A stretch of 64,000 nucleotides of DNA from an uncultured Gammaproteobacteria bacterium. GTDB taxonomy: Bacteria; Patescibacteriota; Patescibacteriia; UBA9570. The position numbers were made by a program, and so were the translations under genes. This document shows positions 18,256 through 39,067 of the stretch, one piece after another (position 1 is the stretch's first letter; each line of letters opens with the position of its first letter). Location: NCBI GenBank assembly GCA_964385285.1, contig CAYLOJ010000002.1, positions 67,246 to 131,245 of the forward strand, given 5' to 3'. A model generated the notes under the pieces. It worked only from the letters and a program-made list of their open reading frames with translations, searched no databases and was not told where the DNA came from.

Positions 18256-18895
18256 ACCCACGCCAAATTCTAACTCAGGGGAGCTTGAAGATATCTTTGA
18301 AGATGGCGGCAGCAATCTTTATAATTCGATTCAAACGCAAACTACTGAGCCGGAGTCTTCTGAACAGGATGCTCCAACTTACTCAGTTCAGTCTAGATCC
18401 AATGGGGGTAAGCGCCGGATCCTAATCATTGCCACTTGCGTTCTAGCTCTGCTACTATTAGGTAGTGGTGGGGTGGGATTGTGGCTTTGGCTACAGACCC
18501 GTCCTGCGCCTGATCCAAATCTGATCATCAACAATCCTGTAAATACGAATACGAACACGAATGTGAATACAGAAGAGACCAATACCAATGTGGTCACTGT
18601 TCCGGAAATACCAACCAATACAAACACTACTACCAATACAAACACACAGAACTTTGTTGATGTAGATCACGATGGCCTGTCGGATGAAGAAGAGCTAGTG
18701 GTGAATACCAATCCGAAAAAAAAGGATACCGATGAAGATGGTCTATCAGATCGCGAAGAGGTGAGAGTCTATAACACCGATCCACGTAATCCTGATACAG
18801 ATGGTGATGGCTATAGCGATGGAGATGAAGTGACTAATTTCTATCATCCCAATCACCCAGATCCAAAAAAACGATTATTCGACTTACCACAATAA
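18233..18895 (+). CDS. Single-pass (N-in) membrane protein with an acidic cytoplasmic N-terminus, an Asn/Thr-rich low-complexity linker and three TSP3-like Asp-rich Ca-binding repeats. Overlaps the giant gene's 3' end by 23 nt.
   Basis: TM ILIIATCVLALLLLGSGGVGLWLWL; NTNTNTNVNT...TNTNTTTNTNT; DVDHDGLSDEEE / DTDEDGLSDREE / DTDGDGYSDGDE. Confidence 0.7.
   Translation: MPTFSPIEPTPNSNSGELEDIFEDGGSNLYNSIQTQTTEPESSEQDAPTYSVQSRSNGGKRRILIIATCVLALLLLGSGGVGLWLWLQTRPAPDPNLIINNPVNTNTNTNVNTEETNTNVVTVPEIPTNTNTTTNTNTQNFVDVDHDGLSDEEELVVNTNPKKKDTDEDGLSDREEVRVYNTDPRNPDTDGDGYSDGDEVTNFYHPNHPDPKKRLFDLPQ
18541..18660 (+). repeat. In-frame tandem hexanucleotide-type repeats (AAY-ACR)n encoding an N-T dipeptide low-complexity linker
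   Basis: aatacgaatacgaacacgaatgtgaataca ... accaatacaaacactactaccaatacaaacaca. Confidence 0.6.
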
Positions 18896-18905
18896 CAACA
18901 TTCAT

Positions 18906-20189
18906 ATGGATTTTCCTCAACAGCCCCAAAGTACTACACCATTTCCCGCTGCGCCTCAGCAACCTACCACACCTCCGCCTTTCCCCAATGTGGCTCAGCC
19001 CGGTGGGATGGCTAGTCCGATGATGAATAATGGTCCAATGATGCCGCCGGCAGCTGGCCCCATGCCTGGTGCTACTATGCCACCGATGGGAGCTGTGTCA
19101 CCAAGTTCCACAGTACAGATTCCAATTCAAAGTCATCCAGCCACTTTATCGTCCGACGAGCAGGTTTATACGATGCCTGAGAAGTTTTTGTCTTCCACAG
19201 CCGCTCCTGTCGCGATGCGTCCAAAAAAATCGAATAAAACTGTAACCATTATCTTGGTAGTCCTCATTACGCTAATGATCTTGGCTGCCGTTGGTGGCGT
19301 CCTCTACTATTTCTTAGTGTTATCCAAACAATCTACCACAATCACCGATGCTCAAAATGCCGTTGTGGTGAATAATGCTAATGTAGTGACCAATGCAAAT
19401 AATAGTAATGCCAATACAAACAGTTTGAATCAGAATGGCAACGATAATGCCAATACCAATGCGAATGATAATACCAATACAAATGCCAATGGCAACACGA
19501 ATGTAGTTGCAAATGATAATACCAATACAGTCAATGCCAATACAAACACGAACAGCAATGCGAATGTGAACGCCAATGGCAATACGAATAGTGTTGCCAC
19601 TACCGTAGTTCCACCCAGTGCAAAAGATACGGATGAAGATAGTTTGACCAATGATGAAGAAAAAGTTTGGGGCACAAAGGCTGATCTGCCAGATACCGAT
19701 AATGATGGTTACGCTGATGGTGTAGAAGTATTAGCTGGCTATGATCCGACTAATCCTACCGGTCGTCTGGCTACTAGCGCTTTGGTTGGTACCTTTACGA
19801 ATAGTGAGTATGGCTACACGATGAGCTATCCAAAAGATTGGTTAGCAGAGGCGTTGGCAGAGGGAGATGCGAGTGAGGTGCTATTTACTCCGAATACTCT
19901 TGATCTGACTGGCCAATTTGTCGCGGTCACGGTGACTGCTAATCCGACAGGCCTAACAGCAGTAGATTGGTATACTGATACTGCTAATGTCGATGAAACA
20001 AAAGTTGAAGTGGTCACTAACTTTGCCGGCAAAACGGGAGTATGGAGCGCTGATCGTACTACGGCTTATTATGCAGATTCAAATCATGTCTACGCGGTAA
20101 GTTATCGTTATGGCAGTAGTGATGAACTCTATTTCCCGACAAGTTTTGAGATGATGGTCAAAAGCTTCACTTTAACGGCTGCCAACTAA
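18906..20189 (+). CDS. Paralog-like single-pass membrane protein with a Pro-rich cytoplasmic N-terminus, a TM helix, an Asn-rich hexamer-repeat linker, TSP3-like Asp repeats and a C-terminal globular domain of about 150 aa with no recognisable family
   Basis: PQQPTTPPPFP...MPPAAGPMPGATMPPMGA; TM VTIILVVLITLMILAAVGGVLYYFLVL; NANTNANDNTNTNANGNTN; DTDEDSLTNDEE / DTDNDGYADGVE. Confidence 0.75.
   Translation: MDFPQQPQSTTPFPAAPQQPTTPPPFPNVAQPGGMASPMMNNGPMMPPAAGPMPGATMPPMGAVSPSSTVQIPIQSHPATLSSDEQVYTMPEKFLSSTAAPVAMRPKKSNKTVTIILVVLITLMILAAVGGVLYYFLVLSKQSTTITDAQNAVVVNNANVVTNANNSNANTNSLNQNGNDNANTNANDNTNTNANGNTNVVANDNTNTVNANTNTNSNANVNANGNTNSVATTVVPPSAKDTDEDSLTNDEEKVWGTKADLPDTDNDGYADGVEVLAGYDPTNPTGRLATSALVGTFTNSEYGYTMSYPKDWLAEALAEGDASEVLFTPNTLDLTGQFVAVTVTANPTGLTAVDWYTDTANVDETKVEVVTNFAGKTGVWSADRTTAYYADSNHVYAVSYRYGSSDELYFPTSFEMMVKSFTLTAAN
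19384..19612 (+). repeat. In-frame (AAT-RCN)n hexamer repeat tract encoding an N-A / N-T low-complexity linker
   Basis: aatgccaatacaaac...aatgccaataccaatgcgaatgataataccaatacaaatgccaatggcaacacgaat... Confidence 0.6.
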
Positions 20190-23784: not shown

Positions 23785-26445
23785 ATGAGGAGGATCCATC
23801 CCGTAGCCAGTTTATTAGTCAGTCTAGGCATGTGTTTGGCTGCCGCTCCGGCCTTTGCGGGGGACACCTTTTTTGTAAACAGTGTCGATGGCAACGATGG
23901 CAATAACTGTCGTTCGGCTAATGCCGCTTGTTTAACTATTGCCCATGCGACTGATTTGTTAACGGCACAATCCAAACCGCAAAATAGTGTTTTGAAATTA
24001 TCCGGCACGTTCGCTGAAACGATTTCACTTTCATCAAGTTCTGTAGACACTGATCAACTCCTAGACGGATTGCGCATTACGGCTACGGATACTGATCAAA
24101 AGCCAACCATTGACGGCACTGGTCAGGATTATGCAGTTTCATTGGTTGATATTCATAACGCGACTGTGGATCATTTAATCGTTACTGGTGCGGCCCATGG
24201 TATCAATGTTAGTGGGTCAGGCTCTAACTATATTTCAGATGCTTCGATTCATCATAATACTGTGACTGGGTTAGTGGGCAATCCATCGTTTACCGCTATT
24301 ACATTATCTAATGCTAAGCAGTCATCGGTAGCGCATAATCAGATTGAGAATCAAGCTCAGGTGACAACAGATGAAACGGATTATGTCCTTAGTCGCAGTA
24401 TTTATCTGTATCGCGTGCGTAATTCAGTCGTAAAATCTAATCGTATCGTTGATGTAGGCATTACCAACACGTTGACTGCGGCAGCTTCTCATTCAACCTA
24501 TCTTTACGGTATCTACGTATCGCAGTCCGTGGATATGATCGTTAAGTCCAATGTTGTGCGGCGCTTAACTAATCTAGAAACCAGTACCGTAGCTGGCACA
24601 AGTCAGTATTTGTATACCTACGGAATTTGGACAGGTAGCTCCGCGGATGTCATTGCCAATCACAATACCGTGGATACAGTGACGTCTACAGTTATTGGTG
24701 ATCTCGCAGGAACCAGTGCGTATAGTTATGCTTACGGAATGACACTGACTGATCTTCATGCTGGCGAAGGCACCAACTTGCTTAATCACAATACTATTAC
24801 AGATGTAACGGCATCGGCAAACACGGCAAGTACATATAGCTATGGCACAGGTATTTCCGTCGATTATACACGCACCTTGTCGATGTTACATAATGTCATC
24901 AAACGTGTGGCCGCTACTGCGAGTGGCTCAATTGCGAATGGTACCTATGATGCAATCAGTTACGGTATTAATGGGCCAAATTACAGTAGCGATATCATTA
25001 TTGATGATACGACTATTCGTAATTTAGATGCGAATGTGGACTACTCTGGAAACGACACTAGCGGCTATGCAGTTGTGAAGGGGATTGTGTCAGCCTATTC
25101 TACTGTGCAGGTTGCTAATAATAGTGTGCGTGATCTGGCTTGGTCAATTAATAACCATGCTGCTGCTAACGCAAATGAATATGCTTATCTCTATGGTATT
25201 GATGTTGGCAATGGTGTGCAGGTGGAGATTCTCAATAACACAGTTCGTGACTTAACTGCGAGCTATACTACAACATCGGCCGGTGGCTATTTTGTACCCT
25301 ATACATTTGGAATTAATTCACAGAATGTAGATACAGCTCTGGTGCAGGGGAATACAGTGCGTGATACTGCAATCAGCGTTACCAACAGTGATCCTACGGA
25401 TGCCAGTGTTATCTACAGCTATCTCTATCTGATCAATCTTGGTAGTATTTCAAATTTAACTGCAGCAAATAACGTTCTGCAGGATAATACCATGACTATC
25501 AATGGTGGAAATGCCAATCCGGTCTACAACTACGTCTACGGAATCAATTTAAGCAATTCAGAAGGAACAATTAATAATAATCGTGTATCAGGATTAACCG
25601 CTTCGGCCAGTAGCGTCAATGGGACGGCTACACAATATATCTATAGTTTGAACGCGAGTAGCTTAGGCCAGTTGGTGATGAATAATAACGTAATCAAGAA
25701 GCTGACCGCAACGGTGGATGCCAACAATCCAAGCCAGTATGTATACGGGATTTATATCACGAATGCCAAACCGGTATATGTGAATGCTAATGAATTCAGA
25801 AACATTCAAGCTACCGCTCCATCTAACCAAAGTGTGATCGGTATGTACCTCAATACGGATGTGAGTAACGGTCGTATTTTGAATAACCTTATGTTGGGCA
25901 AGAGCGATTATAGTGGTAGTGGTGATTACATTGGGCTTTATCTACCCAGTGATTCCAATACAGATCTAGATGTCATCAATAATACCTTTGCCAACTGGCG
26001 TTACCCCATCAAATTAGATGGCGGTAAGAGTGTCACATTGAAGAACAACATCTTTGCGGCTATCACAAACACCGGATATGCCATGGCTATTCGCTATGAC
26101 CATATCAATCAAGATCAATTTAGATCCGATTACAACCTATTCTATAATACACTTGGGAAAACTCGGGCGATCTATGACACGGATGCAGCTGCTGAGATAC
26201 ATTTCGGTGATTGGTCAAATGCCGGTGGTTCCTATGGTTACGATTTGCATTCGCTCTATAGCAAACCAAGACTAACTGCGAGTGGTCGTTTGAAGTCTAA
26301 TTCTAAGGCGCATGACCGCGGTACCGACAATTGGAATTATGCAACAGACAGTCTTGAGTATTCCTTGATCAGTACAGATCTGAATGGCACAGCACGTCCA
26401 GGTGGTGATGGCCAGGTTGATATTGGCGCTGACGAGCAGGAATAG
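23785..26445 (+). CDS. Secreted right-handed parallel beta-helix (PbH1/pectate-lyase-fold) repeat protein, 886 aa, with a roughly 45-aa periodic 'Y-x-Y-G-I ... N-x-V' repeat
   Basis: Signal peptide MRRIHPVASLLVSLGMCLAAAPAFA. Repeats NHNTVTG / HNQIEN / NSVVKSNRIVD / NHNTITDV. The motif (STYLYGIYVS, SQYLYTYGIW, SAYSYAYGMT, YAYLYGIDVG, VYNYVYGINL, QYVYGIYIT) recurs 10 or more times. Confidence 0.8.
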   Translation: MRRIHPVASLLVSLGMCLAAAPAFAGDTFFVNSVDGNDGNNCRSANAACLTIAHATDLLTAQSKPQNSVLKLSGTFAETISLSSSSVDTDQLLDGLRITATDTDQKPTIDGTGQDYAVSLVDIHNATVDHLIVTGAAHGINVSGSGSNYISDASIHHNTVTGLVGNPSFTAITLSNAKQSSVAHNQIENQAQVTTDETDYVLSRSIYLYRVRNSVVKSNRIVDVGITNTLTAAASHSTYLYGIYVSQSVDMIVKSNVVRRLTNLETSTVAGTSQYLYTYGIWTGSSADVIANHNTVDTVTSTVIGDLAGTSAYSYAYGMTLTDLHAGEGTNLLNHNTITDVTASANTASTYSYGTGISVDYTRTLSMLHNVIKRVAATASGSIANGTYDAISYGINGPNYSSDIIIDDTTIRNLDANVDYSGNDTSGYAVVKGIVSAYSTVQVANNSVRDLAWSINNHAAANANEYAYLYGIDVGNGVQVEILNNTVRDLTASYTTTSAGGYFVPYTFGINSQNVDTALVQGNTVRDTAISVTNSDPTDASVIYSYLYLINLGSISNLTAANNVLQDNTMTINGGNANPVYNYVYGINLSNSEGTINNNRVSGLTASASSVNGTATQYIYSLNASSLGQLVMNNNVIKKLTATVDANNPSQYVYGIYITNAKPVYVNANEFRNIQATAPSNQSVIGMYLNTDVSNGRILNNLMLGKSDYSGSGDYIGLYLPSDSNTDLDVINNTFANWRYPIKLDGGKSVTLKNNIFAAITNTGYAMAIRYDHINQDQFRSDYNLFYNTLGKTRAIYDTDAAAEIHFGDWSNAGGSYGYDLHSLYSKPRLTASGRLKSNSKAHDRGTDNWNYATDSLEYSLISTDLNGTARPGGDGQVDIGADEQE

Positions 26446-26459
26446 GGTATACTACCGTT

Positions 26460-26930
26460 ATGCGTTGCCCAGCTTGCTTACACGATGAAACTAAAGTGCT
26501 CGATTCTCGAGACATGGATGAGGGTATGGCTACACGGCGTCGTCGTGAATGTCCAAAATGCGATTTTCGGTTTTCCACTAAAGAGCAGGTTGAAATTTTG
26601 AATCTAAAAGTAAAAAAAACGGATGGTCGTTTGGAACCCTATTCAACCGATAAAATTACTCGGGGCTTACACATTGCCTTAGAAAAACGGTTGAAAGACG
26701 AGGAACGCTTTAAAAAACTCGTGGCAGGTATTGAACGTGATATTCAAATTGCTGCCAAAGCAGATGCTATTGAATCCAAGGCAATTGGTGATATTGTTAT
26801 GCGGCATCTGAAGAAAATTGATAAAATAGCTTATATCCGTTTTGCTTCGGTCTATCAAGACTTTGAAGACCTATTAGCATTCCAAGAAGAGGTGGAACGT
26901 TTAATGACCAAACGTAAGAAAAAAGCTTAA
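26460..26930 (+). CDS. nrdR: Transcriptional repressor NrdR (Zn-ribbon plus ATP-cone)
   Basis: MRCPACLHDETKVLDSRDMDEG...RRRECPKCDFRFSTKE. Confidence 0.9.
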   Translation: MRCPACLHDETKVLDSRDMDEGMATRRRRECPKCDFRFSTKEQVEILNLKVKKTDGRLEPYSTDKITRGLHIALEKRLKDEERFKKLVAGIERDIQIAAKADAIESKAIGDIVMRHLKKIDKIAYIRFASVYQDFEDLLAFQEEVERLMTKRKKKA

Positions 26931-26946
26931 GGCATCATTCACCACT

Positions 26947-27519
26947 ATGAAAATGCATAAAAAACCGTCCAAGCAACGCAATCCCAAGAAAAACTTAGGC
27001 TATTTGCATGTCTATACAGGTGAAGGTAAAGGCAAAACCTCAGCTGCTCTCGGTGTGTTATTGCGAGCCGCTGGTCAGGGGCATCGGGTATTAATGATTC
27101 AGTTTTTAAAGGGCCATAAAGATGCCGGTGAATTTCTTGCCTTTCAACAGTTAGGGGATAATGTGGAGATTGTGCAATTTGGCCGTACGGATCTTACTTC
27201 CTTAGAGGCTGCGCAAGCGGTTGATGCCTATTTTGCAGTGCAGGGTTTGAACTATGCGCGTGAAGCACTACGCGGTCGTCGGCGTCCTGACTTATTGATA
27301 CTGGATGAAGTCACCGCAGCTGTTCATCATGGCTTATTACCAATTGAAGCATTGGTAGATTTCCTTGAGAATCGCCACCGCAATACCGAGGTCATTTTGA
27401 CGGGTGTACAAGCCCATCCAGCCCTATTAAATATGGCTGATTTGGTTACGGTCATGTACCCTGCCAAGCACTATTTTGAGAATCAAAACTTCGAACCACG
27501 CATCGGCATCGAGCACTAG
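26947..27519 (+). CDS. cobA: Cob(I)alamin adenosyltransferase, CobA/CobO/BtuR family
   Basis: VYTGEGKGKTSAALG (P-loop), IQFLKG, LILDEVT, VILTG ... ADLVT..P.KH.F......GI are family motifs. Confidence 0.85.
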   Translation: MKMHKKPSKQRNPKKNLGYLHVYTGEGKGKTSAALGVLLRAAGQGHRVLMIQFLKGHKDAGEFLAFQQLGDNVEIVQFGRTDLTSLEAAQAVDAYFAVQGLNYAREALRGRRRPDLLILDEVTAAVHHGLLPIEALVDFLENRHRNTEVILTGVQAHPALLNMADLVTVMYPAKHYFENQNFEPRIGIEH

Positions 27520-27558
27520 AGGTTATCCACAACTGACGCGTGCTGATTTGGCTATACA

Positions 27559-27605
27559 CCACAACCTATTGTGGTATACTGAATTTCCTACCACAATATA
27601 TAGGG
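27559..27605 (+). promoter_or_regulatory. Two tandem NrdR-box-like palindromes about 31 bp apart in the nrdJ 5' region, overlapping a TATACT -10-like element. A GTTAGC...GCTAAC stem-loop follows in the 5' UTR at 27604-27633.
   Basis: Box 1 cCACAAcctaTTGTGg (27559-27574); box 2 aCCACAATATATAGGG (27590-27605). Compare the NrdR consensus acaCwAtATaTwGtgt. Confidence 0.5.
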
Positions 27606-27676
27606 TTAGCTCAGTTCTGCGGAACGGCTAACAGCAGTAGTAATATAGCCATTATCAATCATTTATTAACGCCAGT

Positions 27677-29987
27677 ATGTACAAATTAGAGGGTCTTGCT
27701 AAAGACGTTTTCTTCGATCGCTACGCTTTAAAGAACGACAAGGGTCAGCGTATGGAAGATACACCAGAAGAAATGTGGCACCGGGTCGCTAAAGCGATTG
27801 CCGAGGTTGAAAAAACGGATGCCAAAAAGCAAGAATGGGAAGAGAAATTTTATAGCATTTTGAATGGGTTTGATTTCATCCCAGGCGGCCGTATCTTGAC
27901 TGGTGCAGGCTCCGGAGTCCCATTGACCCTCTATAACTGTTTTGTAATCCCATCACCGGAAGATAACCGTGGTGGTATTTTGGATAGTGTGAAGTTAATG
28001 GTAGAAATCATGAGTCGTGGCGGTGGCGTGGGTGTAAACTTGTCATCCATTCGTCCACGTGGGGCTTATGTAAAAGGGGTGAACGGCACTGCTTCTGGTG
28101 CAGTTTCCTTTGGCGCTCTCTATTCCTTTGCTACTGGTCTGATTATTCAAGGCGGTTCTCGTCGTGGTGCTTTGATGTTGATGTTGGACTGTGATCATCC
28201 TGATGTGATGGAGTTCATCACTGTCAAACGTACAATGGGTCAAATTACGAACGCCAATTTATCGGTCTGTATCTCTGATGCTTTCATGGAAGCAGTCAAA
28301 GCGGATGCGGATTGGGATTTACAATGGAAAGGCAAAGTCTTTAAAACGATCAAAGCACGTGAATTATGGAATTTGGTCTGTGAATCAGCTTGGGCATCTG
28401 GTGAGCCAGGTTTGATGTTTAAAGAACGTTACAATAAAGAATCCAACTCTTGGTATTTTGAAGATATTATTGCAACCAATCCCTGTGGTGAACAAGGTTT
28501 ACCAGCTTGGGGCGTGTGCAACCTAGGAGCTATCAATGTCGCGAATTTTGTTAAAGAAGATGGTACGCTTAGGTAAAGTGGTTCGTATCACCATGCGCTT
28601 CTTAGATAACGTAGTGGATACCACAGACTACTTCTTCCCGGAAAATGAGGCTGCACAGCGTCGCATTCGTCGCACTGGTTTAGGCACAATGGGATTGGCC
28701 GATGCCTTGATCAAAATGAAAGTGCGATATGGTACTCCAGAATCATTGGAGATCGTTGAAAAAATGCACCAAGTGATTCGCGATGAAGCCTATATTGCGA
28801 GTTCTGAAATTGCTGCTGAAAAAGGTGCTTTCCCAGCCTTTGAGAAAGATAAATATCTACAAGGCCATTTCATTCAACGTTTACCTAAGGCTATTCAGGA
28901 TCTGATTGCTCGTAACGGTATTCGTAACGGTGTGTTATTAACACAAGCTCCAACCGGTACAACTAGTATCTTGGCTGGTGTCAGCTCTGGTATTGAGCCC
29001 GTTTATGATTTTGCGTTCCAACGCAAAGATCGTTTAGGCGTACACACTGTCTATCATCCTTTATTCAAAGCTTGGAAAGATGCTCATCCAGATGAGGAAG
29101 AAGCCCCAGATTATTTTGTGAACGCTAAGCTGTTGAGCCCAGAAGAGCATGTGCGCATGCAAGCTTCTATTCAACGCTATGTAGATTCCAGTATCAGTAA
29201 AACCGTGAACGCTCCTAATAATCATACTCAAGAGCAGGTTCAAGAGTTGTACATGAAAGCGTATGATCTAGGCTGCAAAGGTGTAACCTATTTCCGCGAC
29301 GGTTCTCGTAGTGAAGCTGTATTGACCAGTCTGGACGATGTGAAGAAAGAAGAGGCCAAGAAAGCTAAAGTCGATAATAAAGAGGCGATTATCTCTCCGC
29401 GCTTACGTCCAGAAAAAGTTGCTGGAATCACATACAAAATCAAGACTGGTTACGGCACCATGTTTGTCACTGTGAATCATGATGAAGAAGGTAAGCCATT
29501 TGAAGTGTTTGCCACAATTGGAAAAGCGGGTGGTGTCTTCGCTGAAGAATCTGAAGCTATCTGCCGTTTAGTCTCCTTGGCTCTGCGTGCTCGTATCCCA
29601 CTGCCTACTGTGATTGAACAGATTAAGGGCATCCGTGGACCTATGCCGATCTTTGGTAAGGGTGGCATGATTCTCTCGATTCCAGACGCGATTGGTCAGG
29701 TGTTAAGTCAGCATATCCTCGATTTAGAAGCTAAGCAGACTCCTGCTCAGCAAGCAGAAGAGGCTGAAAAAGAGGTAGTCCGTATGCAAGCGCAAACTGA
29801 AGCTTTGGTAGAAGATGCTGCCGCTGCTACGGTCAAAAAAGCAGAAGGTAAATACAAATTGATCTCGGCTGGTTCATCCGTGGCTAATACAGGTTTCTCT
29901 CCAGAATGTCCAGAATGTAGTAGTATCATGGCGATGGCGGAAGGCTGCCTCACCTGCTTCAACTGCGGTTATTCCAAGTGCTCCTAA
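27677..29987 (+). pseudogene. nrdJ: Adenosylcobalamin-dependent (class II) ribonucleotide reductase NrdJ, split into two overlapping ORFs (27677-28576 and 28536-29987) by a frameshift near 28562-28576. It is either a real pseudogene or a sequencing/assembly indel.
   Basis: ORF 1 ends ...AINVANFVKEDGTLR*. The +1 frame continues with GKVVRITMRFLDNVVDTTDYFFPENEAAQRRIRRTGLG. The combined length of about 770 aa matches class II RNRs, and the C-terminal Cys-rich zinc ribbon is present. Confidence 0.85.
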
Positions 29988-30028
29988 ACTAGTCTGACAC
30001 CCCCTTCCTAACTTAGGGAGGGGGTGAT

Positions 30029-30622
30029 ATGATCCGTCCTATGAATACATTTAATCGCAAAAATATCTTACTAGCGCTTGGATTAGTGCTATTGGGCGCA
30101 GCTGGCCGCATGCTATTGCTGGCATATCCAAACGTAGAAACCTTAACAGCTGTATCCATTTTGGCCGGGGCATTATTGGGTCCATATCTGGGTTTGGCAG
30201 TTAGTCTATTCAGCGTTGTCGGTTCCGATATGATGATCGGTAATACGAATATCTTGCTCTACACTTGGAGTGCTTGGGCAGTGATCGGTATCACCAGTGC
30301 GGCGTTAAAACGTCATCAACGTGGAAATGTTCAAGTGTGGATGGATAGTTTGAAATTTACCGGCTTTAGTATCGTCAGTACAGTATTCTTTTATGCTTGG
30401 ACAAATTTTGGTGTCTGGCACCTCTCTGGTTTGTACCCACATACCTTAGCTGGCCTGGAGTTGTCGTACATCAATGCCTTGCCATTTCTGCGTAATCAGT
30501 TGTTAGGTAACTTACTGATTGTTCCGGTTGTATCCACGCTCGTGTTATCTGTAATCAAATATCTGCCAGTAGTCTTATCGCAACCCAGCCTATTATGGCG
30601 CCAGTCACGAAAGACTCTCTAA
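30029..30622 (+). CDS. Small polytopic membrane protein (about 5-6 TM, 197 aa). ECF-transporter S-component-like. Given its position, a possible cobalamin or precursor uptake component.
   Basis: Hydrophobic helices throughout. Preceded by a hairpin (29994-30022) that includes its GGAGGGGG RBS. The proposed function comes only from context. Confidence 0.55.
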   Translation: MIRPMNTFNRKNILLALGLVLLGAAGRMLLLAYPNVETLTAVSILAGALLGPYLGLAVSLFSVVGSDMMIGNTNILLYTWSAWAVIGITSAALKRHQRGNVQVWMDSLKFTGFSIVSTVFFYAWTNFGVWHLSGLYPHTLAGLELSYINALPFLRNQLLGNLLIVPVVSTLVLSVIKYLPVVLSQPSLLWRQSRKTL

Positions 30623-30831
30623 TCGGAGATGTCCTGTTAGAGCTGCCAGAAGCCCAGGAGATTATGATTAAGTATTTTGGTGAGCAGGTGGCTTGCACGT
30701 TTTGTCCTGGTCAAGCGTTTGATACCTTTGCCATGATTGCGGAACTACATGGGGTGGAAGAAGATGCCGTCGATGCGATGATCGCGGAAATGAATCAGGT
30801 GATTCAGTCGGTTGAGACTGTTGTGGATTAG
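30595..30831 (+). CDS. DUF1858-type small redox-disulfide domain protein (hybrid-cluster-protein-associated family)
   Basis: TKDSLIGDVLLELPEAQEIMIKYFGEQVACTFCPGQAFDTFAMIAELHG matches the DUF1858 pattern with its C-x2-C-P-G motif. Confidence 0.7.
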   Translation: MAPVTKDSLIGDVLLELPEAQEIMIKYFGEQVACTFCPGQAFDTFAMIAELHGVEEDAVDAMIAEMNQVIQSVETVVD

Positions 30832-30855
30832 TCCAACCGCTTTGTTCAGTCAATT

Positions 30856-30889
30856 AAAATAGCCACGTACGAAGGTGCGTGGCTATTTT
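30856..30889. terminator. Bidirectional rho-independent terminator between the convergent DUF1858 gene (+) and glnA (-)
   Basis: AAAAT-AGCCACG-(10 nt)-CGTGGCT-ATTTT. Confidence 0.6.
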
Positions 30890-30908
30890 GTTTAGGAGTA
30901 ACTAGATA

Positions 30909-32348
30909 TTACAAGGTGTAATATAGTTGGAATTCATGTGGATGTGGGCGTAAGCGCACTTCATCCATCTGATCCGTTTTCATCTTCATGAAGTTGGTCA
31001 GGAACTGATCCGTAAATACCCCGGTCTGAGTTAAGTAATCATGATCTTCTTCTAAGGCAGCGAAGGCTTCATTTAATGAAGATGGTACAAATTTTACTTT
31101 ACTCTTTTCAGCAGGGGAAAGGTCAAATAAGTTCATGTCCATGGGCTTGCCTGGATCCAGTTTACGTTTAATGCCGTCTAATCCAGCTAAGAGCATGGCA
31201 CTAAAGGCTAAGTAGGGGTTAGCAGCGGCATCACCTGAACGGAACTCAATACGTGTTCCAGCTGGGGTTTGATCGTAGATTGGAATACGCACGGCCGCCG
31301 AGCGGTTGCGCTTGGAGTAGGCCCGTACGACTGGAGCTTCATAACCAGGAGTCAAACGTTTGTAGGAGTTGGTGGTAGGCGCAGCAAAGGCGAGGATCGA
31401 TTTAGCATGGTGCAAAATACCAGCCATATAATGCATTCCTAACTCACTCATACCCGCATACCCTTTTTTGTCGTAGAAAAGTGGAGTGCCATTTTTCCAG
31501 AGCGATTGATGGCAGTGCATACCTGTACCATTATGACCAAAGAGTGGTTTAGGCATAAAGGTGACTGTTTTGCCACAGCGAGCGGCGACATTACGGACAA
31601 TATACTTATAGAGCATCACTTGGTCGGCCTGTTTAACCATGTCTTGAAACCGAATATTAATTTCCGCTTGGCCGGGAGCACCTACTTCATGATGATGGCG
31701 TTCTACGACAATACCGGCACGTTGTAGCTCTCGTACCATCTCACTGCGGAGATTATGGAATTGATCCATCGGTGGCACGGTAAAATAGCCACGTTGATTT
31801 GGCACGCGGAAACCTTGGTTACCACGTTCATACGGCGTTTTGTTATTCCAAACGCCTTCGGCAGAATCAATCGACAAGCTGGAATAGTGATCATTACTAC
31901 TGTATCGGACATCTTCAAAAATGAAGAACTCAATTTCTGGGCCAACATACATAGTATCCGCCAGTTTGGTTGAGCGCATATAATCCAGCGCTTTGCGAGC
32001 AATGTAGCGAGGATTATTATAGTATTCGTTCACCTGACCAGTAATCGGGTCCATCGGGTCGGCAATAATCGAAAGGGTAGGTACGGTGGTGAATGGATCG
32101 ACGAACGCTGTACTGGGATCAGGGATCATGACTAAATCGCTTTCTACGATGGTCTGAAAGCCGGGGATACTAGAGCCGTCAAACGCCACACCTTTTTCAA
32201 AGACCGATGGCGTAAACATATCCATGGTCAATGTAACCGAACGCCAGCGACCTTCTAGGTCAGTAAACTTTACATCAACCATCTCAATTTTGTTTTTTTT
32301 GCACAGTGCCAGCAGTTTAGTAACGGCTGCTGAAGACGATTGACTCAT
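30909..32348 (-). CDS. glnA: Glutamine synthetase type I
   Basis: 479 aa with GS beta-grasp and catalytic-domain motifs (FDGSSIPGF, GPEIEFF, NPYLAFSAMLLAGLDGI). Confidence 0.95.
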   Translation of the reverse strand: MSQSSSAAVTKLLALCKKNKIEMVDVKFTDLEGRWRSVTLTMDMFTPSVFEKGVAFDGSSIPGFQTIVESDLVMIPDPSTAFVDPFTTVPTLSIIADPMDPITGQVNEYYNNPRYIARKALDYMRSTKLADTMYVGPEIEFFIFEDVRYSSNDHYSSLSIDSAEGVWNNKTPYERGNQGFRVPNQRGYFTVPPMDQFHNLRSEMVRELQRAGIVVERHHHEVGAPGQAEINIRFQDMVKQADQVMLYKYIVRNVAARCGKTVTFMPKPLFGHNGTGMHCHQSLWKNGTPLFYDKKGYAGMSELGMHYMAGILHHAKSILAFAAPTTNSYKRLTPGYEAPVVRAYSKRNRSAAVRIPIYDQTPAGTRIEFRSGDAAANPYLAFSAMLLAGLDGIKRKLDPGKPMDMNLFDLSPAEKSKVKFVPSSLNEAFAALEEDHDYLTQTGVFTDQFLTNFMKMKTDQMDEVRLRPHPHEFQLYYTL

Positions 32349-32474
32349 AGGGGATGAAGCCTAAGTAGTTAGATTAAAGACGCATAAAGAAAAAAATCTC
32401 CTGCCCGCATCATGCGAGACAGAAGACACCAGTGTCTTTGGGTGTACGACGTTGTACGAGATTAGTATAGCAGC

Positions 32475-33158
32475 CTATAACGATAGTGCAAGCATGATCG
32501 CTTCCGCCACCTCTTTCATCGTTTTTTTGGTATCCATCGATTTTTTTCGGATCAAACTATAGGCAGCATCTTCAGTGATTTGTTGTTGTTTCATCAATAG
32601 CCCTTTGGCCTTTTCAATCACTTTACGTGTTTCTAACGCTTCCTTCAGCATGCGCGTTTCTGAGAGCAGTTTGGCATTAGAAATAGCCCCACCTACTTGA
32701 GTGGCGATGGTGCGCAATAAGGAAAGGTCTGTTTCACTATGCTGTCGTTTTTTGCGGTGCTGCACATTAATGACGCCCACTAATTCATCTTTAAAGGTAA
32801 TGGGGATGGATACGAAGGCTTCCCAACGATCTTCATCGACATCTAAGTGCGGAATAAATTTATAGCGGCTATCTTGGTACGATCGCTCCGTCAACGCGAC
32901 CAGTTTGCGTTGTTGTGCTACCCAACCCGTAATGCCTTCACCATAATGCATCGCTACTTTGTTGATCATTTTAGGATGCGGAATTTTGGAAGCCTTCAGA
33001 ATGAGATGATCATCTTGTGCAAGATAAATTAAGCAGGAGTCCGCCTTCATTGTTTCAGACACAAGGTCAACCACTTGCGTTAATACCTCGTCTAAATTTA
33101 AATTGTAACTGATGGTTTCAGTGATCCGTTCTAACAGTTGCAATTGTTGTTTGAGCAT
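32475..33158 (-). CDS. GAF-ANTAR RNA-binding antiterminator-type regulator
   Basis: N-terminal GAF domain and C-terminal ANTAR (ETRKVIEKAKGLLMKQQQITEDAAYSLIRKKSMDTKKTMKEVAEAIM). It lies directly upstream of glnA on the same strand. Confidence 0.85.
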   Translation of the reverse strand: MLKQQLQLLERITETISYNLNLDEVLTQVVDLVSETMKADSCLIYLAQDDHLILKASKIPHPKMINKVAMHYGEGITGWVAQQRKLVALTERSYQDSRYKFIPHLDVDEDRWEAFVSIPITFKDELVGVINVQHRKKRQHSETDLSLLRTIATQVGGAISNAKLLSETRMLKEALETRKVIEKAKGLLMKQQQITEDAAYSLIRKKSMDTKKTMKEVAEAIMLALSL

Positions 33159-33206: not shown

Positions 33207-33860
33207 CTAAAACTGGCTAGCCAATAGCGGATGATCGAGCTCACTCCAGCGGCCCTGAGCAGCAATTTTGCCCTCTTCTAAAATCATTGCCGTATCACTC
33301 AAATAACGTGCCTCCGGAAGATCGTGTGTAACATACAACACAGTGAGTTGCTGTGTAGTGACGATCGTTTTGAACCACCGTACCAACTCAACCCGCGTAA
33401 TGCTATCGAGAGCCGAAAATGGCTCGTCACACAATAATAATTGCGGTTGATAACTGAGTACACGTGCTAACATGGCGCGTCGCTGTTCACCTCCACTGAC
33501 CGCATTAGGATAACGGTTGGCTAGATGAGTGAGGTGACAGTGCTCGAGCAGTGCTTTGGTCCGCTGCTGTTGAACGGTTTTGGGCAGATGTCGGATACGC
33601 AGTGGGTAGGCGATATTTTCACTGATGGTGAATTGAGGGAATAAGGTAAGGTGTTGTTCTAAGTAACCGACTTGATTTGCAGTGTAGCCAGCGATGCTGC
33701 CCGTGTAAGATTCTAATCCGGCGACACAACGTAATAAACTGGTTTTTCCAGAACCAGACCGGCCTAAGATGCTATGGATACCAGGTGATAACGCAAAACT
33801 AAGATCATTTAAAATGGGATGGGGACCGTAGAAAAATTTAAGATTGGCGACGGTGAGCAT
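33207..33860 (-). CDS. ABC transporter ATP-binding protein
   Basis: Walker A GRSGSGKTS, signature LSGGEQRRAML, Walker B LLLCDEPFSALD. Confidence 0.9.
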   Translation of the reverse strand: MLTVANLKFFYGPHPILNDLSFALSPGIHSILGRSGSGKTSLLRCVAGLESYTGSIAGYTANQVGYLEQHLTLFPQFTISENIAYPLRIRHLPKTVQQQRTKALLEHCHLTHLANRYPNAVSGGEQRRAMLARVLSYQPQLLLCDEPFSALDSITRVELVRWFKTIVTTQQLTVLYVTHDLPEARYLSDTAMILEEGKIAAQGRWSELDHPLLASQF

Positions 33861-35229
33861 ACGCAGAGTAATGAATGATCAGTTGTAAGAGGAAGAGTAC
33901 TATGAGTAGCGTGATCAGTGCCAGACCACCCACTTGATAGCGGTAGCTGCCAAACAGACTGTAAGTGACTTGCATGGCAGTAGGTTGTGCATTGGGAGTC
34001 AACAGACTAGCTAGGGCAATATCGCCCAGGACCAACACCACGCCGATCGATAATAATTGACGCATGGCCGGCCATAACCACCGCCACTCCAGGTGAAGCT
34101 GCTGCCATCGATTTGCACCTAATATTTTGGCGGTTTCCAGTAAAGCGGGCGGTAGTTGACTATATCCACTGTGAACAAGATAACTGCCAAGTGGAAGTAA
34201 GCTGATACAGAGCGCGGCTGCTAGACTACTTAAACCTTGTCCAAAGTAAGTGAGCCACAGGGCAGCAACGGTGACGGGAGAGAGTGTCAGCAATAGAAGT
34301 GTCCAGTTACGCGCTCTTCTCAGCAGTACGCTGAGGATAATGCTTATGCTTAATACTACGAGCATTAGCAGTAAACTGCGCAGTAAACTTTCACCAAACT
34401 GACTGCGCCACAGAGTTTCTATAGTTGTAGTGCTAGTGTGCAGAGCGATGTGTGTGATTAGGCTAAGTAGTGGCGCCAGGAGAGCTAGTGTGGCCAACCA
34501 ACGCAGGAGCATTACACTGTGGATTGGACGCAGAGTACTGGGCACAAAGTGTTGTGTAGGTGTGGGTAGGGAGCGTATTACGATGAGGATAGGTAATACA
34601 AAGATCAAGGTTTGTACAATCGCCACACCTAAGGCTAATTCGGGTTGATGCAATAGTTTAATCTGTTCGTAAAGCCAGACCTCAACTGTTTTCGCAGTGC
34701 TGCCACCGAGTTGCAGCGGTAGGGTAAAACTGGTCCAGCAATAGAGAAAGATTACTGCGCCTATCCCTAGGACGGTACCTTTTAATTGTGGCCACCAAAT
34801 GGTCTGCATGATCTGCCAGCGAGAGGCACCTAAAAGGCGCGCGGCCTCCTCGGTGTGCTGTGATAGGCGTGCCAAGGTCGCGTGGGTGGCTAAATAAGCC
34901 AATGGAATATTATAGTAAAGATGGGCCAAAACGACTGCCGATGGGCGATAGAGTAATTGAATTGGGGGTAAGTGCAACGCATGCAGCAGTGTATTTAGAT
35001 CACCGGCTTGACCGAACAGTTGAACAAAACCGGTACTCACGAGTAATGGTGGTAAAAATACTGGCAGGGTACAGAGTGCCGACCACCAGCGCGGGGTGAT
35101 AGCTTGGTAACGCCGCTCCAGTAATGCAAAGCCTGAACCCAGTAGTAGGCTTACCGCGGTGACAATACTACTTTGCCAGAGCGTGAACTTTACTATTGGC
35201 CAAAGATCCCATTCCATTGATTTAACCAA
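33838..35229 (-). CDS. ABC transporter permease with two fused transmembrane domains (FbpB/ThiP-like, of the iron(III)/thiamine/spermidine importer type)
   Basis: 463 aa with about 12 TM helices and two EAA-like loops; overlaps the ATPase and SBP genes. Confidence 0.85.
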   Translation of the reverse strand: MVKSMEWDLWPIVKFTLWQSSIVTAVSLLLGSGFALLERRYQAITPRWWSALCTLPVFLPPLLVSTGFVQLFGQAGDLNTLLHALHLPPIQLLYRPSAVVLAHLYYNIPLAYLATHATLARLSQHTEEAARLLGASRWQIMQTIWWPQLKGTVLGIGAVIFLYCWTSFTLPLQLGGSTAKTVEVWLYEQIKLLHQPELALGVAIVQTLIFVLPILIVIRSLPTPTQHFVPSTLRPIHSVMLLRWLATLALLAPLLSLITHIALHTSTTTIETLWRSQFGESLLRSLLLMLVVLSISIILSVLLRRARNWTLLLLTLSPVTVAALWLTYFGQGLSSLAAALCISLLPLGSYLVHSGYSQLPPALLETAKILGANRWQQLHLEWRWLWPAMRQLLSIGVVLVLGDIALASLLTPNAQPTAMQVTYSLFGSYRYQVGGLALITLLIVLFLLQLIIHYSAYAHRRQS

Positions 35230-36161
35230 GTGGTGTAATTACTATTGATTTGCAGATCAGTCAGTGATCGTAACTGATCCGGTGTTGGCTGAATCAGTTG
35301 ATCATACGCCGCTGGCACTGTCGCGTCTTCTTGAATAGGGAACATCCACTGTGTGGTGGCAATTTGATTCTGCACGGAATCGGTCAGTAGATAATAGATA
35401 AACTGTTGTGCAAGCGTGGTGTGATCATCACGCGTGATCGCCACATACTCGGTTTGCTTAAGATAACCATCACTAATCGGTACGGCTCGATAACGATCTG
35501 TCCCTTCTTGATCAAGGTGATACGCTGGGCTAGTGACATAACTTAACACAATCGGTGCTTCTCCATTTAAGAAGAGGGAATAGTATGCGGTGTTCCAATC
35601 TGGAGTTACGGTGAGTACTTGTTGGTGTAATGCCTGCCAAAACTCAGTCGTATCATCGCCAAATACTGCCTGACTCCATAGCAATAACTGTGTGCCCGGA
35701 GAGGACAATCCCGGTTGTTCAATAATAATTTTATTTTTGTATGCAGGGTCTTGCACTAAGGCCTCTAAACTGATCGGTTGATCAAATTGAATCGCTTCAC
35801 TGTCATAGACAAAATCCACATAGCTGTAATCGAACGCAGTGGAATCGTAAAATAGTCCGCGGTTATCAAAGCGGGCTAAATCCGTATTATCCATCCCCAA
35901 CACAAGGTCTGCCTGTGGATCGGATTGTTCAGACACAAGCTGATTCATCATCGCGCCAGTGTCAGGGAAACTGACAATGTTTAGTTTCACGTTATTCGCA
36001 GTTTCAAATTCGGGTTGAATTTTGGGAAGTAGACCGTAGTCTGCCGCCAAACTATCATAGGTATATATAGTCAGTGTGGCCGGCGCATTGATAGGCGTTG
36101 TGCTAGTTTGAGTACAGCCTGTGAGGGCAATTAAACTGCAAATGATGAGTAGTTTTTTCAT
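35193..36161 (-). CDS. ABC transporter substrate-binding lipoprotein (FbpA/TbpA-like). The ORF extends to 36236, but the likely start is MKKLLIICSLIALTGC at 36161.
   Basis: Lipoprotein signal with lipobox LTGC; periplasmic-binding-protein-like sequence. Confidence 0.8.
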   Translation of the reverse strand: MKKLLIICSLIALTGCTQTSTTPINAPATLTIYTYDSLAADYGLLPKIQPEFETANNVKLNIVSFPDTGAMMNQLVSEQSDPQADLVLGMDNTDLARFDNRGLFYDSTAFDYSYVDFVYDSEAIQFDQPISLEALVQDPAYKNKIIIEQPGLSSPGTQLLLWSQAVFGDDTTEFWQALHQQVLTVTPDWNTAYYSLFLNGEAPIVLSYVTSPAYHLDQEGTDRYRAVPISDGYLKQTEYVAITRDDHTTLAQQFIYYLLTDSVQNQIATTQWMFPIQEDATVPAAYDQLIQPTPDQLRSLTDLQINSNYTTWLNQWNGIFGQ

Positions 36162-36172
36162 AGGTATTAAAT

Positions 36173-36196
36173 AAAAAATTCCCTTAAATAGGGAAT
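36173..36196 (-). terminator. Hairpin ATTCCCT-taaat-AGGGAAT with an A/T tract. On the minus strand it lies just after the sigma-factor gene and before the SBP start codon.
   Basis: 7-bp perfect inverted repeat at 36178-36184 / 36190-36196 with AAAAAA at 36173-36178. Confidence 0.45.
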
Positions 36197-36290
36197 ACAA
36201 CAAGCAGATACTCGCTGTGATTCCCTTCGCTGGCATTACCCAGATCAGGTGTAAAGGATATCTCTCAGCCCAGCAGTTGCATGGGCACTC

Positions 36291-37394
36291 CTATACAGCG
36301 GTGTTACTATAGCGAGCGGATTGTTCCTTGGCAAGTTTGGTTTCCAATTGATCCTTGCCACGAGCAATACGGACACGGACCGTATTTTCAGGTTCCTGAT
36401 TTTCTTTGGCAATTTGCGAACCATTCAATCCATCCACCAGATGGCGCAATAGGGTTGTGCGTGTGGCGGCATGATCTAACGACTGAATCAACTGAACTGC
36501 AGCAGATCGATCTGTTCGGATAAGCGTATCTAATCGTGGAGTAATGCTATGCAGTTCGGGAATCTCCCCACCCATGTGTTCTGCCAAGATCCGACGATAG
36601 CGTGATAATAATAAACCAACTGCGTTTGGACTACGCTGCAGTTGGGTTGCAATTTCTTTGATCGGTAAATTATCAATTAATTGCAGGCGCAGTGCTTCAG
36701 CAGCGGTGGCGTTTGGAAGATCACGAATGGCTTGTTCCAAAGCCAAACGATCACCGGTTTGGGCATCGACTGCTGCAGGGCTCAAGACGGTATCTGCCTC
36801 CGTCACTAATGTTTGTAGTCGCAAACGGGCGCGGCGGACGATGGTACGGACAGTAGCCACTGGCACACCTTGTTCAGTGGCAATTTCATCTGCCGTTTTT
36901 TCATGCAGGTAATACGCATCAATCATCGCTATTTTTTGCGGCGTCAATTCATTGGCTAACTGCTGGCGGGCACGCTGATACGCCTGGAGTTCTTCATGCG
37001 TGATTAATGCATCCACGGTAGTGATCTCATCGGCAGTTAAGTTTACGAGGGCATCTGGATCGCTCGAAGCATTGCGGGGGGATTTTATGTGATCCAGGGC
37101 GAGGCGTTTACTGATGGTCGTCAGTAAACCAGGTACGTTACTATCGACCTTTAACTGTGTACGGCGTTCCCAGACCTTTTGAAAGGTTTGTTGTTTGATC
37201 TCATCTGCTATTTCAGTGCGTTTCACGATACCTAAAGCTGTGCGCCAAACGATCGCTGAGTAGCGTTCATAAAGGCGATCAAAAGCCGTCTGGGCAATAC
37301 TCTCATCCGCATTTTGCAGAGCCAAGACTAGCGTTTGTAACTCTTCAGTCGGTAGAACCGTTGGACGTTCATTGGCATTACGAACCATGAGCAC
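36291..37394 (-). CDS. Sigma-70/ECF-family sigma factor with one sigma-2 region followed by three tandem sigma-4-like HTH domains (unusual architecture), of intermediate GC
   Basis: Region 2: FDRLYERYSAIVWRTALGIVKRTEIADEIKQQTFQKVWERR. Three sigma-4-like segments: LTPQKIAMIDAYYLHEKTADEIATEQGVPVATVRTIVRRARLRL; LPNATAAEALRLQLIDNLPIKEIATQLQRSPNAVGLLLSRYRRIL; TLLRHLVDGLNGSQIAKENQEPENTVRVRIARGKDQL. Confidence 0.75.
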   Translation of the reverse strand: MLMVRNANERPTVLPTEELQTLVLALQNADESIAQTAFDRLYERYSAIVWRTALGIVKRTEIADEIKQQTFQKVWERRTQLKVDSNVPGLLTTISKRLALDHIKSPRNASSDPDALVNLTADEITTVDALITHEELQAYQRARQQLANELTPQKIAMIDAYYLHEKTADEIATEQGVPVATVRTIVRRARLRLQTLVTEADTVLSPAAVDAQTGDRLALEQAIRDLPNATAAEALRLQLIDNLPIKEIATQLQRSPNAVGLLLSRYRRILAEHMGGEIPELHSITPRLDTLIRTDRSAAVQLIQSLDHAATRTTLLRHLVDGLNGSQIAKENQEPENTVRVRIARGKDQLETKLAKEQSARYSNTAV

Positions 37395-37520: not shown

Positions 37521-38961
37521 CTACAGGTACAGGCTGCCGGCGGAGAAGTCGCCGCGGCCGTGACCCTCCACAGTCGCGAGGGCGGCCCAGAACGAACCGG
37601 GGCGGATCAGCTCATCCCAGCTCAGCGGGAGGTGGGACCGCAGGAACTGCTTCGGATCTGCGGCCAGCAACTTGCGGGCCGCTTCCTGCCAACGCCCGAT
37701 GAGACGGGCGTGGCGCAAGTCCACGGCCCAGAGACGATTCGAGTCGTCCACCGGAAGGTCCACCCGACGGATCTGCTCGGTGATCTCTTCCACCGACACC
37801 TGCGTGGCATCGCCGAGGCGGGCCGGGCAGAAGAAGTGGTCGGTGACCACGGGAATTCCCAGGCCGGGCAGATTGACGCTGAGCATGTTCGTGATGTCGC
37901 CATGCTGCGAGACCTTCAGGTCGTCCGCGATGCCGGCAGCGAGCGTGCGGGGCGTGAAGCCCAGCAAGCGCGCTACCAACAGTTCCCAGAGCTCCACCGT
38001 GAGGTAGGGGCCCAGGTTGCTGAACGCCACCGAGTGGACCTGATTCACTTCCGAGAGCTTCGTCATCTCCTTCACCAGGCGCTGACGCTGGCCGTAGGAG
38101 GTGGGCTCCGGGTGGAGATCGGACTGGATGTACGTGCCACTCCGAACGAAGAGGCGCATCATCATCTCGATGGCGGCGCCAGCCACGGCTTCCGCCGAGA
38201 CGACCTCCATCATCCCAATGCAGGTGATCGCGATCGTCTCTTCGAGGCCGAACTGGCCGTTCTCGCCACAGCGCACGCCGACTCCGGTGTACTCGCCGTC
38301 CAGCTGGAAGGCGACCGGGTGCAGCGCGTGCTTCGGCAAGAACTGGCTGAAGGCCATCTGCGGAACGGCGTTCCCGACCGTGATCGGACCGTGGAACGGA
38401 GTTTCGAAGCCGATCATCCCGCGGGGGACGACCCGCCCGACACGCCGACCAGGCGTCCGGCCGAGCAGGTCGAGCTGCCCGCCGTGCACCGAGGCGGCGA
38501 GGTTCTTGCGGATGAGACCGGGTGCGATGTCCCCGTTGCTTGCCTCGTTGTGGGTGAAGCCGAGATTCATCCCCATGCCGCCGGTGGCCACCGTGCCGAT
38601 GTCGATCCAGGGGATCCCGGACCGCACGATCGGCTCGATGACACCGAAGACGTAGTCGATGACGTACTTGGCGATGTCACCCTGCTTGGAGGCAAGGCTT
38701 GCGATGTTCACGCTGTCGATGATGGCGATCGGCGTGAACCGGGCCACCAGCTTCTGCATGAACTGGGGGTTGAAGACGTCCACCTCCGGACCCGTGACGT
38801 ACTCGACGCCGGGGAGCGGGATGGGGTGGGGCCGACGGTCGACCACCACCGGCTTGAACGGAGACTCAGTGACCCCCGGGAAGGAAACGGCCTGGAGCTC
38901 ACGCACGATGGCGTGACCAACCAGACCGGCACCTCCGAGGATCAGAACGGTTCCGAGCATG
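37521..38961 (-). CDS. NAD(P)-binding Rossmann-fold protein of 480 aa, possibly saccharopine-dehydrogenase or homospermidine-synthase-like; function unresolved. GC-rich. The ORF extends to 39149, but the start is at MLGTV (38961) with a GGAGG RBS.
   Basis: N-terminal VLILGGAGLVGHAIVREL dinucleotide-binding motif. The overlapping plus-strand ORF 37467-38987 is Arg/Pro-rich antisense. Confidence 0.55.
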
Positions 38962-39067
38962 GAACCTCCCTTACTCTGGATTGTTGATGAACACACGCAG
39001 ATCAAAGGCATCTGCGCGGGAACATTCTGCTGATTTAGTTGTAATGTGTCAAGGGCAAATGATGCGT

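Follow-up and report, generated by a model that had tools for sequence, protein, structure and literature searches.

A probable corrinoid salvage-and-use cluster of Kerfeldbacteria with a DUF6580 membrane protein as predicted CbrT-related importer

A 64-kb stretch of contig CAYLOJ010000002.1, referred to in its entirety as the window, carries in the following order the gene for the repressor NrdR, a cobA/btuR adenosyltransferase gene, two NrdR boxes, the gene (nrdJ) for a class II ribonucleotide reductase (RNR), the gene for a 197-amino-acid membrane protein of the DUF6580 family and that for a small CxxC protein. We interpret this arrangement, with a probability of about 0.75 and on the basis of sequence comparisons, as a corrinoid salvage-and-use cluster of Candidatus Kerfeldbacteria (Patescibacteria/Candidate Phyla Radiation, CPR), in which the DUF6580 protein is a predicted CbrT-related importer. 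Kerfeldbacteria provide the nearest named relatives of this membrane protein. The listing of open reading frames (ORFs) and the profile searches agree with the gene set that a first-pass annotation of the window had put forward; the term "self-sufficiency" that was used there is a misnomer, since the cluster would scavenge corrinoid rather than synthesize it.

In the scheme that we propose, the DUF6580 protein, a six-helix protein of the type of the S-components of energy-coupling factor (ECF) transporters, would bind cobalamin or cobinamide and import it into the cell. CobA would adenosylate the imported corrinoid to adenosylcobalamin (AdoCbl), which would then serve as the radical cofactor of NrdJ, while NrdR would sense dATP/ATP through its ATP-cone, bind to the two boxes over the nrdJ promoter and repress nrdJ. 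There is a precedent for such a gene set. In L. delbrueckii, the nrdJ-cbrS-cbrT-pduO context prompted the experiments that proved ECF-CbrT to be an importer of both cobalamin and cobinamide (Santos et al., 2018, PMC5997447; PDB 6FNP). The corresponding L. helveticus locus comprises nrdJ, a DUF4430 gene, cbrT and pduO, and cbrS likewise encodes a DUF4430 protein. In the Kerfeldbacteria cluster as in that of Lactobacillus, the gene for an AdoCbl-dependent RNR is accompanied by genes for an enzyme that adenosylates corrinoids and for a small S-component-type protein of six helices, and most DUF6580 loci share DUF4430 with the Lactobacillus cluster as well. The Kerfeldbacteria cluster differs in that the adenosyltransferase is of the CobA type instead of the PduO type, in that the RNR is of another class II subtype that carries a TSCPD domain and a tail rich in Cys, and in that NrdR boxes exert the control here, whereas sister clades use a B12 riboswitch; moreover, the clade of the window possesses DUF1858 instead of DUF4430, and no ECF module is seen among the window ORFs examined. 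Judged from these comparisons, we would be dealing with a CPR form of the B12 salvage-and-use cluster known from CbrT, and a function would be predicted for the large DUF6580 family.

The membrane protein (30029..30622, + strand) matches the Pfam family PF20221 (DUF6580) with an E-value of 5e-26 (92 bits), and alignment with its homologues indicates that translation probably starts at the ATG at position 30041. NCBIfam holds no model for this protein, and we found no literature on DUF6580, a family that comprises 4,338 clusters at 50% identity (E<=1e-3). The riboflavin S-component model PF07155 is matched by the window protein below threshold (18.3 bits versus a cutoff of 26.7), and PF12822, the family of CbrT, is matched by several DUF6580 homologues, although not above the cutoff by the window protein itself. 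When the PDB was searched with the single sequence of the window protein, no match was recovered; a profile of the DUF6580 family found a sole match there, the CbrT chain 6FNP_A (E 0.16). A more direct comparison was made with a profile derived from an alignment of 19 CbrT homologues. Aligned by hhalign, the two profiles matched with 97.2% probability (E 4e-11) over 156 columns, that is, over essentially their full length. They have in common the motifs R...PNV(E/Q)xxT, S(D/N)xx(I/L)G and GN, and one of the CbrT homologues (P0190) also matches PF20221. The profile comparisons identify DUF6580 and CbrT as distant homologues. There are differences between the two: DUF6580 belongs to PF20221 and not to PF12822, is about 20% identical to CbrT and possesses invariant motifs of its own (YTWSAW, TNFGVW).

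An AlphaFold (AF2) model built from 33 homologues (predicted local distance difference test score of 90.5) contains six helices, and the best 11 matches that Foldseek returned for it from the PDB are all ECF S-components (YkoE, FolT, RibU, PanT, ThiT, CbiM), with probabilities of 0.4-1.0 and template modelling (TM) scores of 0.35-0.6. The modelled structure thus predicts the six-helix fold of an ECF S-component. The motifs PNVET, DxxIGN, TNFGVW and LYPHT, which are conserved and made up of polar and aromatic residues, are situated in predicted outward-facing loops. The first-pass annotation had suggested from position alone that the membrane protein could be an S-component-like importer, and the fold, the homology to CbrT and the family context now all agree with this proposal; the profile searches that it had called for yielded the match to CbrT and no match to an unrelated family.

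To place the gene in its genomic context, we surveyed the DUF6580 family with one genome per species. Among 226 confirmed relatives the best 80 loci were kept, 52 of them of the CPR type (the record titles are wrong for some of these) and 28 from Actinomycetota (Promicromonospora, Luteimicrobium). In 48 of the 52 CPR-type loci the upstream sequence is long enough to judge the presence of nrdJ, and 42 of these carry nrdJ just upstream of the DUF6580 gene on the same strand. cobA is kept beside nrdJ or the DUF6580 gene in 31 related loci. Two gene orders are found: nrdR-cobA-nrdJ-DUF6580-DUF1858 in the clade of the window, and nrdR-nrdJ-cobA-DUF4430-DUF6580. The nrdJ genes that are linked to DUF6580 are of different types, with 24-90% identity to that of the window. 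Since the linkage survives both the rearrangement of the genes and the exchange of the nrdJ subtype, it argues for a functional tie.

Further ties to vitamin B12 come from the family at large. A DUF4430 gene directly precedes the DUF6580 gene in 52 of the 80 loci, among them all 28 loci from Actinomycetota, where the encoded DUF4430 protein is a lipoprotein. DUF4430 constitutes the C-terminal domain of transcobalamins (PMC4350170), and the actinobacterial DUF4430 protein matches PDB 3U7Z and human transcobalamin-1 (4KKI). In one protein (P0318, 335 amino acids) the two are naturally fused, DUF6580 being followed by an extra transmembrane segment with a lipobox-like LSFSGC sequence and by DUF4430. 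Moreover, Rfam places cobalamin riboswitches directly in front of the DUF4430-DUF6580 genes in 7 of the 30 CPR loci scanned (L027, L031, L037, L040, L041, L071 and L072; 36-71 bits, above the gathering score). None was detected in nine Actinomycetota loci, nor in the entire window, which was searched with Rfam over its full 64 kb, nor at E<=1 across positions 26300-31000.

The adenosyltransferase gene (26947..27519, + strand) encodes a protein of the cobA/btuR type that scores 170 bits against PF02572 (cutoff 25.7), carries the P-loop GEGKGKT, which conforms to GxGKGKT, and matches the Salmonella CobA structures 1G5R and 4HUT at an E-value of 5e-21; its scores stay below the NCBIfam equivalog cutoffs (144 versus 168 and 157 versus 185). 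Both the position between nrdR and the RNR gene and the motifs that had been quoted for it are present as described. In four related loci (L001, positions 3274-5547; L012; L015; L020) an additional 1.2-2.3 kb separates cobA from the NrdR boxes and nrdJ.

The nrdR gene (26460..26930, + strand) encodes a protein with the Zn-ribbon (PF22811) and the ATP-cone (PF03477) of this repressor of RNR genes, and it exceeds the TIGR00244 cutoff (159 versus 125 bits). The two putative operators, box 1 (CCACAACCTATTGTGG; 27559..27574) and box 2 (CCACAATATATAGGGT; 27591..27606), are palindromes spaced 32 bp apart, with two mismatches between box 2 and ACACWATATATWGTGT. A consensus scan places a candidate sigma-70-like promoter (TATACA, 16 nt, TG-TATACT; 27553..27580, + strand) so that it overlaps box 1. 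A single box is matched in the window no more often than expected by chance (1 match versus 1.1 expected). In about 18 related loci, however, the pair with its spacing of 32-33 bp is again found in front of nrdJ, and because of this conservation we consider the boxes genuine; it is hence the pair, and not the single box, that carries the evidence for the tandem boxes that had been noted in front of nrdJ. The NrdR regulon, reportedly described by Rodionov and Gelfand in 2005, is marked by 16-bp NrdR boxes that stand in tandem in front of nrd operons. In the window we find the NrdR protein together with two 16-bp palindromic boxes about 32 bp apart over the promoter of an nrd gene; what sets the locus apart from a typical NrdR regulon is the putative cofactor importer downstream in the nrdJ unit and the position of the adenosyltransferase gene between nrdR and the boxes. 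As the boxes lie downstream of cobA, they would control nrdJ and the genes co-transcribed with it, and not cobA. Of the coupling between cobA and nrdJ that the first-pass annotation proposed, the adjacency of the genes holds; no evidence was found that cobA shares the NrdR control, and it is linked to the unit by its position alone.

We consider it likely that nrdJ, the DUF6580 gene and the DUF1858 gene form one transcription unit under NrdR control. The sequence behind nrdJ is too short to accommodate a promoter, and the first canonical terminator follows DUF1858; NrdR therefore probably represses these two genes as well. This U-tailed intrinsic terminator (30855..30896), whose 16-bp stem leads into UUUUGUUU (-26 kcal/mol, z -4.6), is bidirectional and faces a convergent stretch (30909-33158, - strand) with glnA and, behind it, a gene for a GAF-ANTAR regulator; this synteny is kept in L081 and L083. 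The gap of 41 nt between nrdJ and the DUF6580 gene contains a GC-rich hairpin (29997..30027, + strand; -26 kcal/mol, z -3.2) whose 5' arm is rich in C and whose 3' arm, rich in G, lies over the ribosome-binding site of the DUF6580 gene. It lacks a U-tract, is probably an attenuator or a stability element, and probably lowers the expression of the DUF6580 gene. Similar hairpins between nrdJ and DUF6580 are also present in L001, L002, L010 and L081; their position is conserved, and their sequence is not.

The RNR gene is split over two reading frames. Its 5' part (27677..28576, + strand), which stops at a premature TAA, covers positions 4-307 of TIGR02504 (297 bits; also PF00317 and PF02867), and its 3' part in the +1 frame (28569..29987, + strand, within an ORF spanning 28536-29987), which encodes the C-terminal half of the barrel, the TSCPD domain and the Cys-rich C-terminal tail, covers positions 314-606 (274 bits; also PF02867 and PF12637). 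Thermotoga maritima NrdJ (1XJE) matches the gene product at an E-value of 6e-29. Both halves thus match models of NrdJ, the AdoCbl-dependent class II RNR, but the gene is not the unbroken one that had been annotated, as the frameshift had been missed. Seven nucleotides in front of the ATG at 28536 stands an AGGAG sequence (within 28524-28538), so that the 3' ORF could be translated independently; this may be a coincidence, as the relatives have TTGGTG at this site. In other related CPR genomes the N- and C-terminal nrdJ matches lie far apart (by about 1.2 kb in L013 and L022, and by about 1.8-2 kb in L024, L028, L030 and L034), which suggests inteins or other insertions.

Several of our observations weigh against the interpretation as a corrinoid salvage-and-use cluster. 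The E-values of the Foldseek matches are weak (0.03-1) and back the fold class alone, and DUF6580 does not keep the AxxxA motif that CbrT has in helix 1 (A-L-L-T-A): where the two align, the window protein has Leu, and another stripe of small residues (A16, G23, G26) is conserved instead. Pfam searches of 36 of the 52 long ORFs of the window, including all those of the size of EcfA or EcfT, revealed no genes for the ECF A and T components, and none are present within 10 kb of the DUF6580 gene in L005, L026, L032, L039, L081 and L083. The hairpin behind nrdJ could end transcription, and the frameshift in nrdJ puts the function of the module in this particular genome in doubt. Furthermore, the clade of the window has neither the riboswitch nor DUF4430, so that the strongest links to B12 come from other DUF6580 clades; the window protein is 44-100% identical to members of the nrdJ-linked clade and 37-50% identical to those of the riboswitch-linked clades, and the assignment of its substrate thus depends on orthology within the family. 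Given this, and given that S-components have one fold whatever their substrate and that cobalamin riboswitches are also known to govern cobalt transporters, the DUF6580 protein might instead carry another cargo of use to an RNR (for instance cobalt, deoxynucleosides, a thiol reductant), or might lie next to nrdJ through synteny alone. We regard this as improbable. The linkage to nrdJ outlasts changes in gene order and in nrdJ subtype, DUF6580 pairs with a B12-binding domain of the transcobalamin type, to which it is fused in one protein, its gene is linked to cobA, whose product acts on corrinoids, and its closest solved relative is CbrT. An import of cobalt would moreover be pointless without corrin synthesis, for which no genes were seen in the window and which, to our knowledge, is generally lacking in CPR.

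The break in nrdJ bears on the function of the module in this genome and has to be weighed separately. It results from a 14-bp deletion at about position 28569/28570, after which the sequence reads ACG CTT AGG TAA (28566..28576, + strand) and the premature stop codon (28574-28576) follows directly at the junction. DNA alignments show that the deletion is unique to the window and missing from 10 of 10 relatives; the closest syntenic relatives, L081 and L083, possess intact nrdJ genes for 764 and 792 amino acids, respectively. The two halves are otherwise intact (92% and 86% identity to L001), and we therefore consider the deletion to be recent, a variant or an artefact. Hence, the module has either been broken recently in this genome, or we are dealing with a variant or an assembly error, or, which is unlikely, the gene is rescued by +1 frameshifting. 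That the deletion is real and the cluster a decaying remnant, the cell receiving its deoxynucleotides from a host or from an RNR encoded outside the window, is a possibility to be reckoned with, although a doubtful one; the predicted function of the DUF6580 family would stand in any case. Fourteen base pairs are unlike a sequencing error of the homopolymer type, and the other long ORFs of the window, one of them encoding 2746 amino acids, are intact, so that the assembly is not generally error-prone. On the other hand, an inactivation would have to be very recent given the intact nrdJ halves, cobA, DUF6580 and DUF1858 genes, the deletion could equally be a minority allele or an artefact of the consensus or assembly of a metagenome-assembled genome, and neither a second RNR nor another B12 enzyme is visible among the window ORFs examined. 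Ribosomal frameshifting at CUU-AGG-UAA would yield full-length NrdJ minus five residues: with the A site stalled by AGG, the rarest codon (5 of 16,321; 0.3 per thousand), which has a stop codon behind it, CUU in the P site would move on to UUA. Slippage by +1 at these seven nucleotides leads back precisely into the NrdJ frame, and the lost residues lie in a segment of variable length by comparison with T. maritima NrdJ. Sites of +1 frameshifting are known elsewhere, namely CUU-AGG-C in Ty1 and CUU-UGA-C in prfB. We nevertheless rate programmed frameshifting as highly improbable because no relative shares the site; deletion and frameshift are absent from every relative compared, out-of-frame sequence produces rare codons by chance, and the site bears no sign of selection.

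If the DUF6580 protein imports corrinoids as we propose, its transport would be energized either by a shared ECF module or, as in BtuM, by the protein acting on its own. BtuM of Thiobacillus denitrificans, a small S-component-like membrane protein for B12, functions in the absence of an ECF module (Rempel et al., 2018, PMC6072759), and it would offer a possible model for DUF6580 should CPR genomes lack EcfT. It is, however, a proteobacterial protein linked to btuB, it matched neither the window protein nor the family profile in our PDB searches, and its cobalt-ligating Cys has no counterpart in DUF6580; neither Cys nor His is conserved among 85 DUF6580 sequences, which rules out a Cys ligation of the BtuM type. 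Candidate ECF modules, seen as trios of ORFs of about 250-300 amino acids in L005, L026, L032 and L039, proved to be genes for an ABC-2 exporter and for glycolytic, glycosyltransferase and methyltransferase functions. The BtuFCD and BtuB-TonB systems fulfil the same task of corrinoid import with unrelated proteins, and none of these was found among the window ORFs searched; the combination of a B12 riboswitch with a btuFCD locus, which the first-pass annotation had named as evidence against its proposal, was hence not seen in the window.

The last gene of the presumed unit (30595..30831, + strand) encodes a DUF1858-like CxxCPG protein of 78 amino acids and overlaps the DUF6580 ORF by 28 nt, as had been stated. 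Its label needs qualification: the curated cutoffs are not reached (PF08984, 24.5 versus 32.2 bits; TIGR03980, 30.4 versus 44.95), and PDB 2K53 matches at an E-value of 0.11, while the CxxCPG motif, conserved in all 25 orthologues, and these orthologues themselves speak in favor of it. The DUF1858 family includes CxxU selenoproteins (PMC9312934), and this points to redox chemistry. A role in the reduction of corrinoid or in the re-reduction of NrdJ is a mere possibility, supported by nothing beyond the conserved adjacency: the gene follows that for DUF6580 in 24 related loci, including L011-L022 where glnA is not adjacent, and in the window and in L081 the end of the DUF6580 ORF overlaps with it by 28-56 nt. 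The distributions of DUF1858 and DUF4430 are complementary, the former being absent wherever the latter is present; a function as a binding protein that replaces DUF4430 was rejected, since the protein has neither a signal peptide nor a transmembrane segment and should hence be cytosolic. The odds are nonetheless evenly balanced that DUF1858 is an unrelated redox protein outside the B12 module, which merely happens to be syntenic with it in Kerfeldbacteria. In L083 it is set apart from the DUF6580 gene by two other genes and still lies beside glnA, outside the clade of the window no DUF6580 locus carries it, and we found no link between DUF1858 and B12 in the literature.

Other parts of the window also attracted our attention. 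An ABC importer operon (33207-36236, - strand) that encodes a solute-binding protein, a 463-amino-acid permease and an ATPase is preceded by a thiamine pyrophosphate (TPP) riboswitch (36205-36302, - strand; 61.6 bits); it looks like a thiamine salvage transporter, which would place another locus for vitamin scavenging at a distance of 5 kb from the B12 cluster. Genes for folate and pterin synthesis, a capacity that is notable in a CPR genome, follow one another at 47497-50680 (- strand) and encode a pterin-binding dihydropteroate synthase, a PabC-like class IV aminotransferase, a PabB-like chorismate-binding enzyme and GTP cyclohydrolase I. The block between positions 36000 and 42000 is GC-rich (0.52 versus about 0.45 elsewhere) and may be foreign DNA; it contains a gene for a sigma-70-like/helix-turn-helix protein (36291-37394) and two long ORFs without a Pfam match (37521-39149 and 40011-41042). 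It is not rRNA, of which Rfam detected none. The 2746-amino-acid ORF (10015-18255, + strand), whose homologue in L081 has T4SS_pilin and Big_5 domains, is followed by genes for bacterial TSP3-repeat proteins (18233-20189, + strand) upstream of ftsA-ftsZ; these ORFs probably encode giant surface or adhesion proteins.

The data would also accommodate a more far-reaching proposal, which we advance as a speculation that is rather unlikely to hold in full: DUF6580 might be the main entry route for corrinoids in CPR and some Actinomycetota, operating like BtuM without an ECF module and with DUF4430 as an external capture subunit, and in Kerfeldbacteria it might hand the corrinoid to the cytosolic CxxC protein DUF1858 for thiol-dependent reduction or decyanation ahead of CobA. 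If true, the combination of a DUF4430 binding protein with an S-component would be an arrangement not described before.

For most B12-auxotrophic prokaryotes it is not yet known which protein carries B12 across the inner membrane (PMC6072759), and we found no literature on such an importer of CPR/Patescibacteria. The members of the CPR are ultra-small symbionts that rely on scavenged cofactors, and the sole visible enzyme producing deoxynucleoside triphosphates in the genome segment studied here needs AdoCbl. Participation of DUF6580 and DUF4430 in corrinoid uptake would provide a testable function for a large family of hitherto uncharacterized domains, would explain the occurrence of class II RNRs in genomes that lack B12 synthesis, and would offer a marker of B12 dependence for metagenomes. 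The same operon logic, which unites an RNR, an adenosyltransferase, a B12 binder and an S-component, would then be found in Lactobacillales and in CPR, assembled from non-orthologous or very distant parts.

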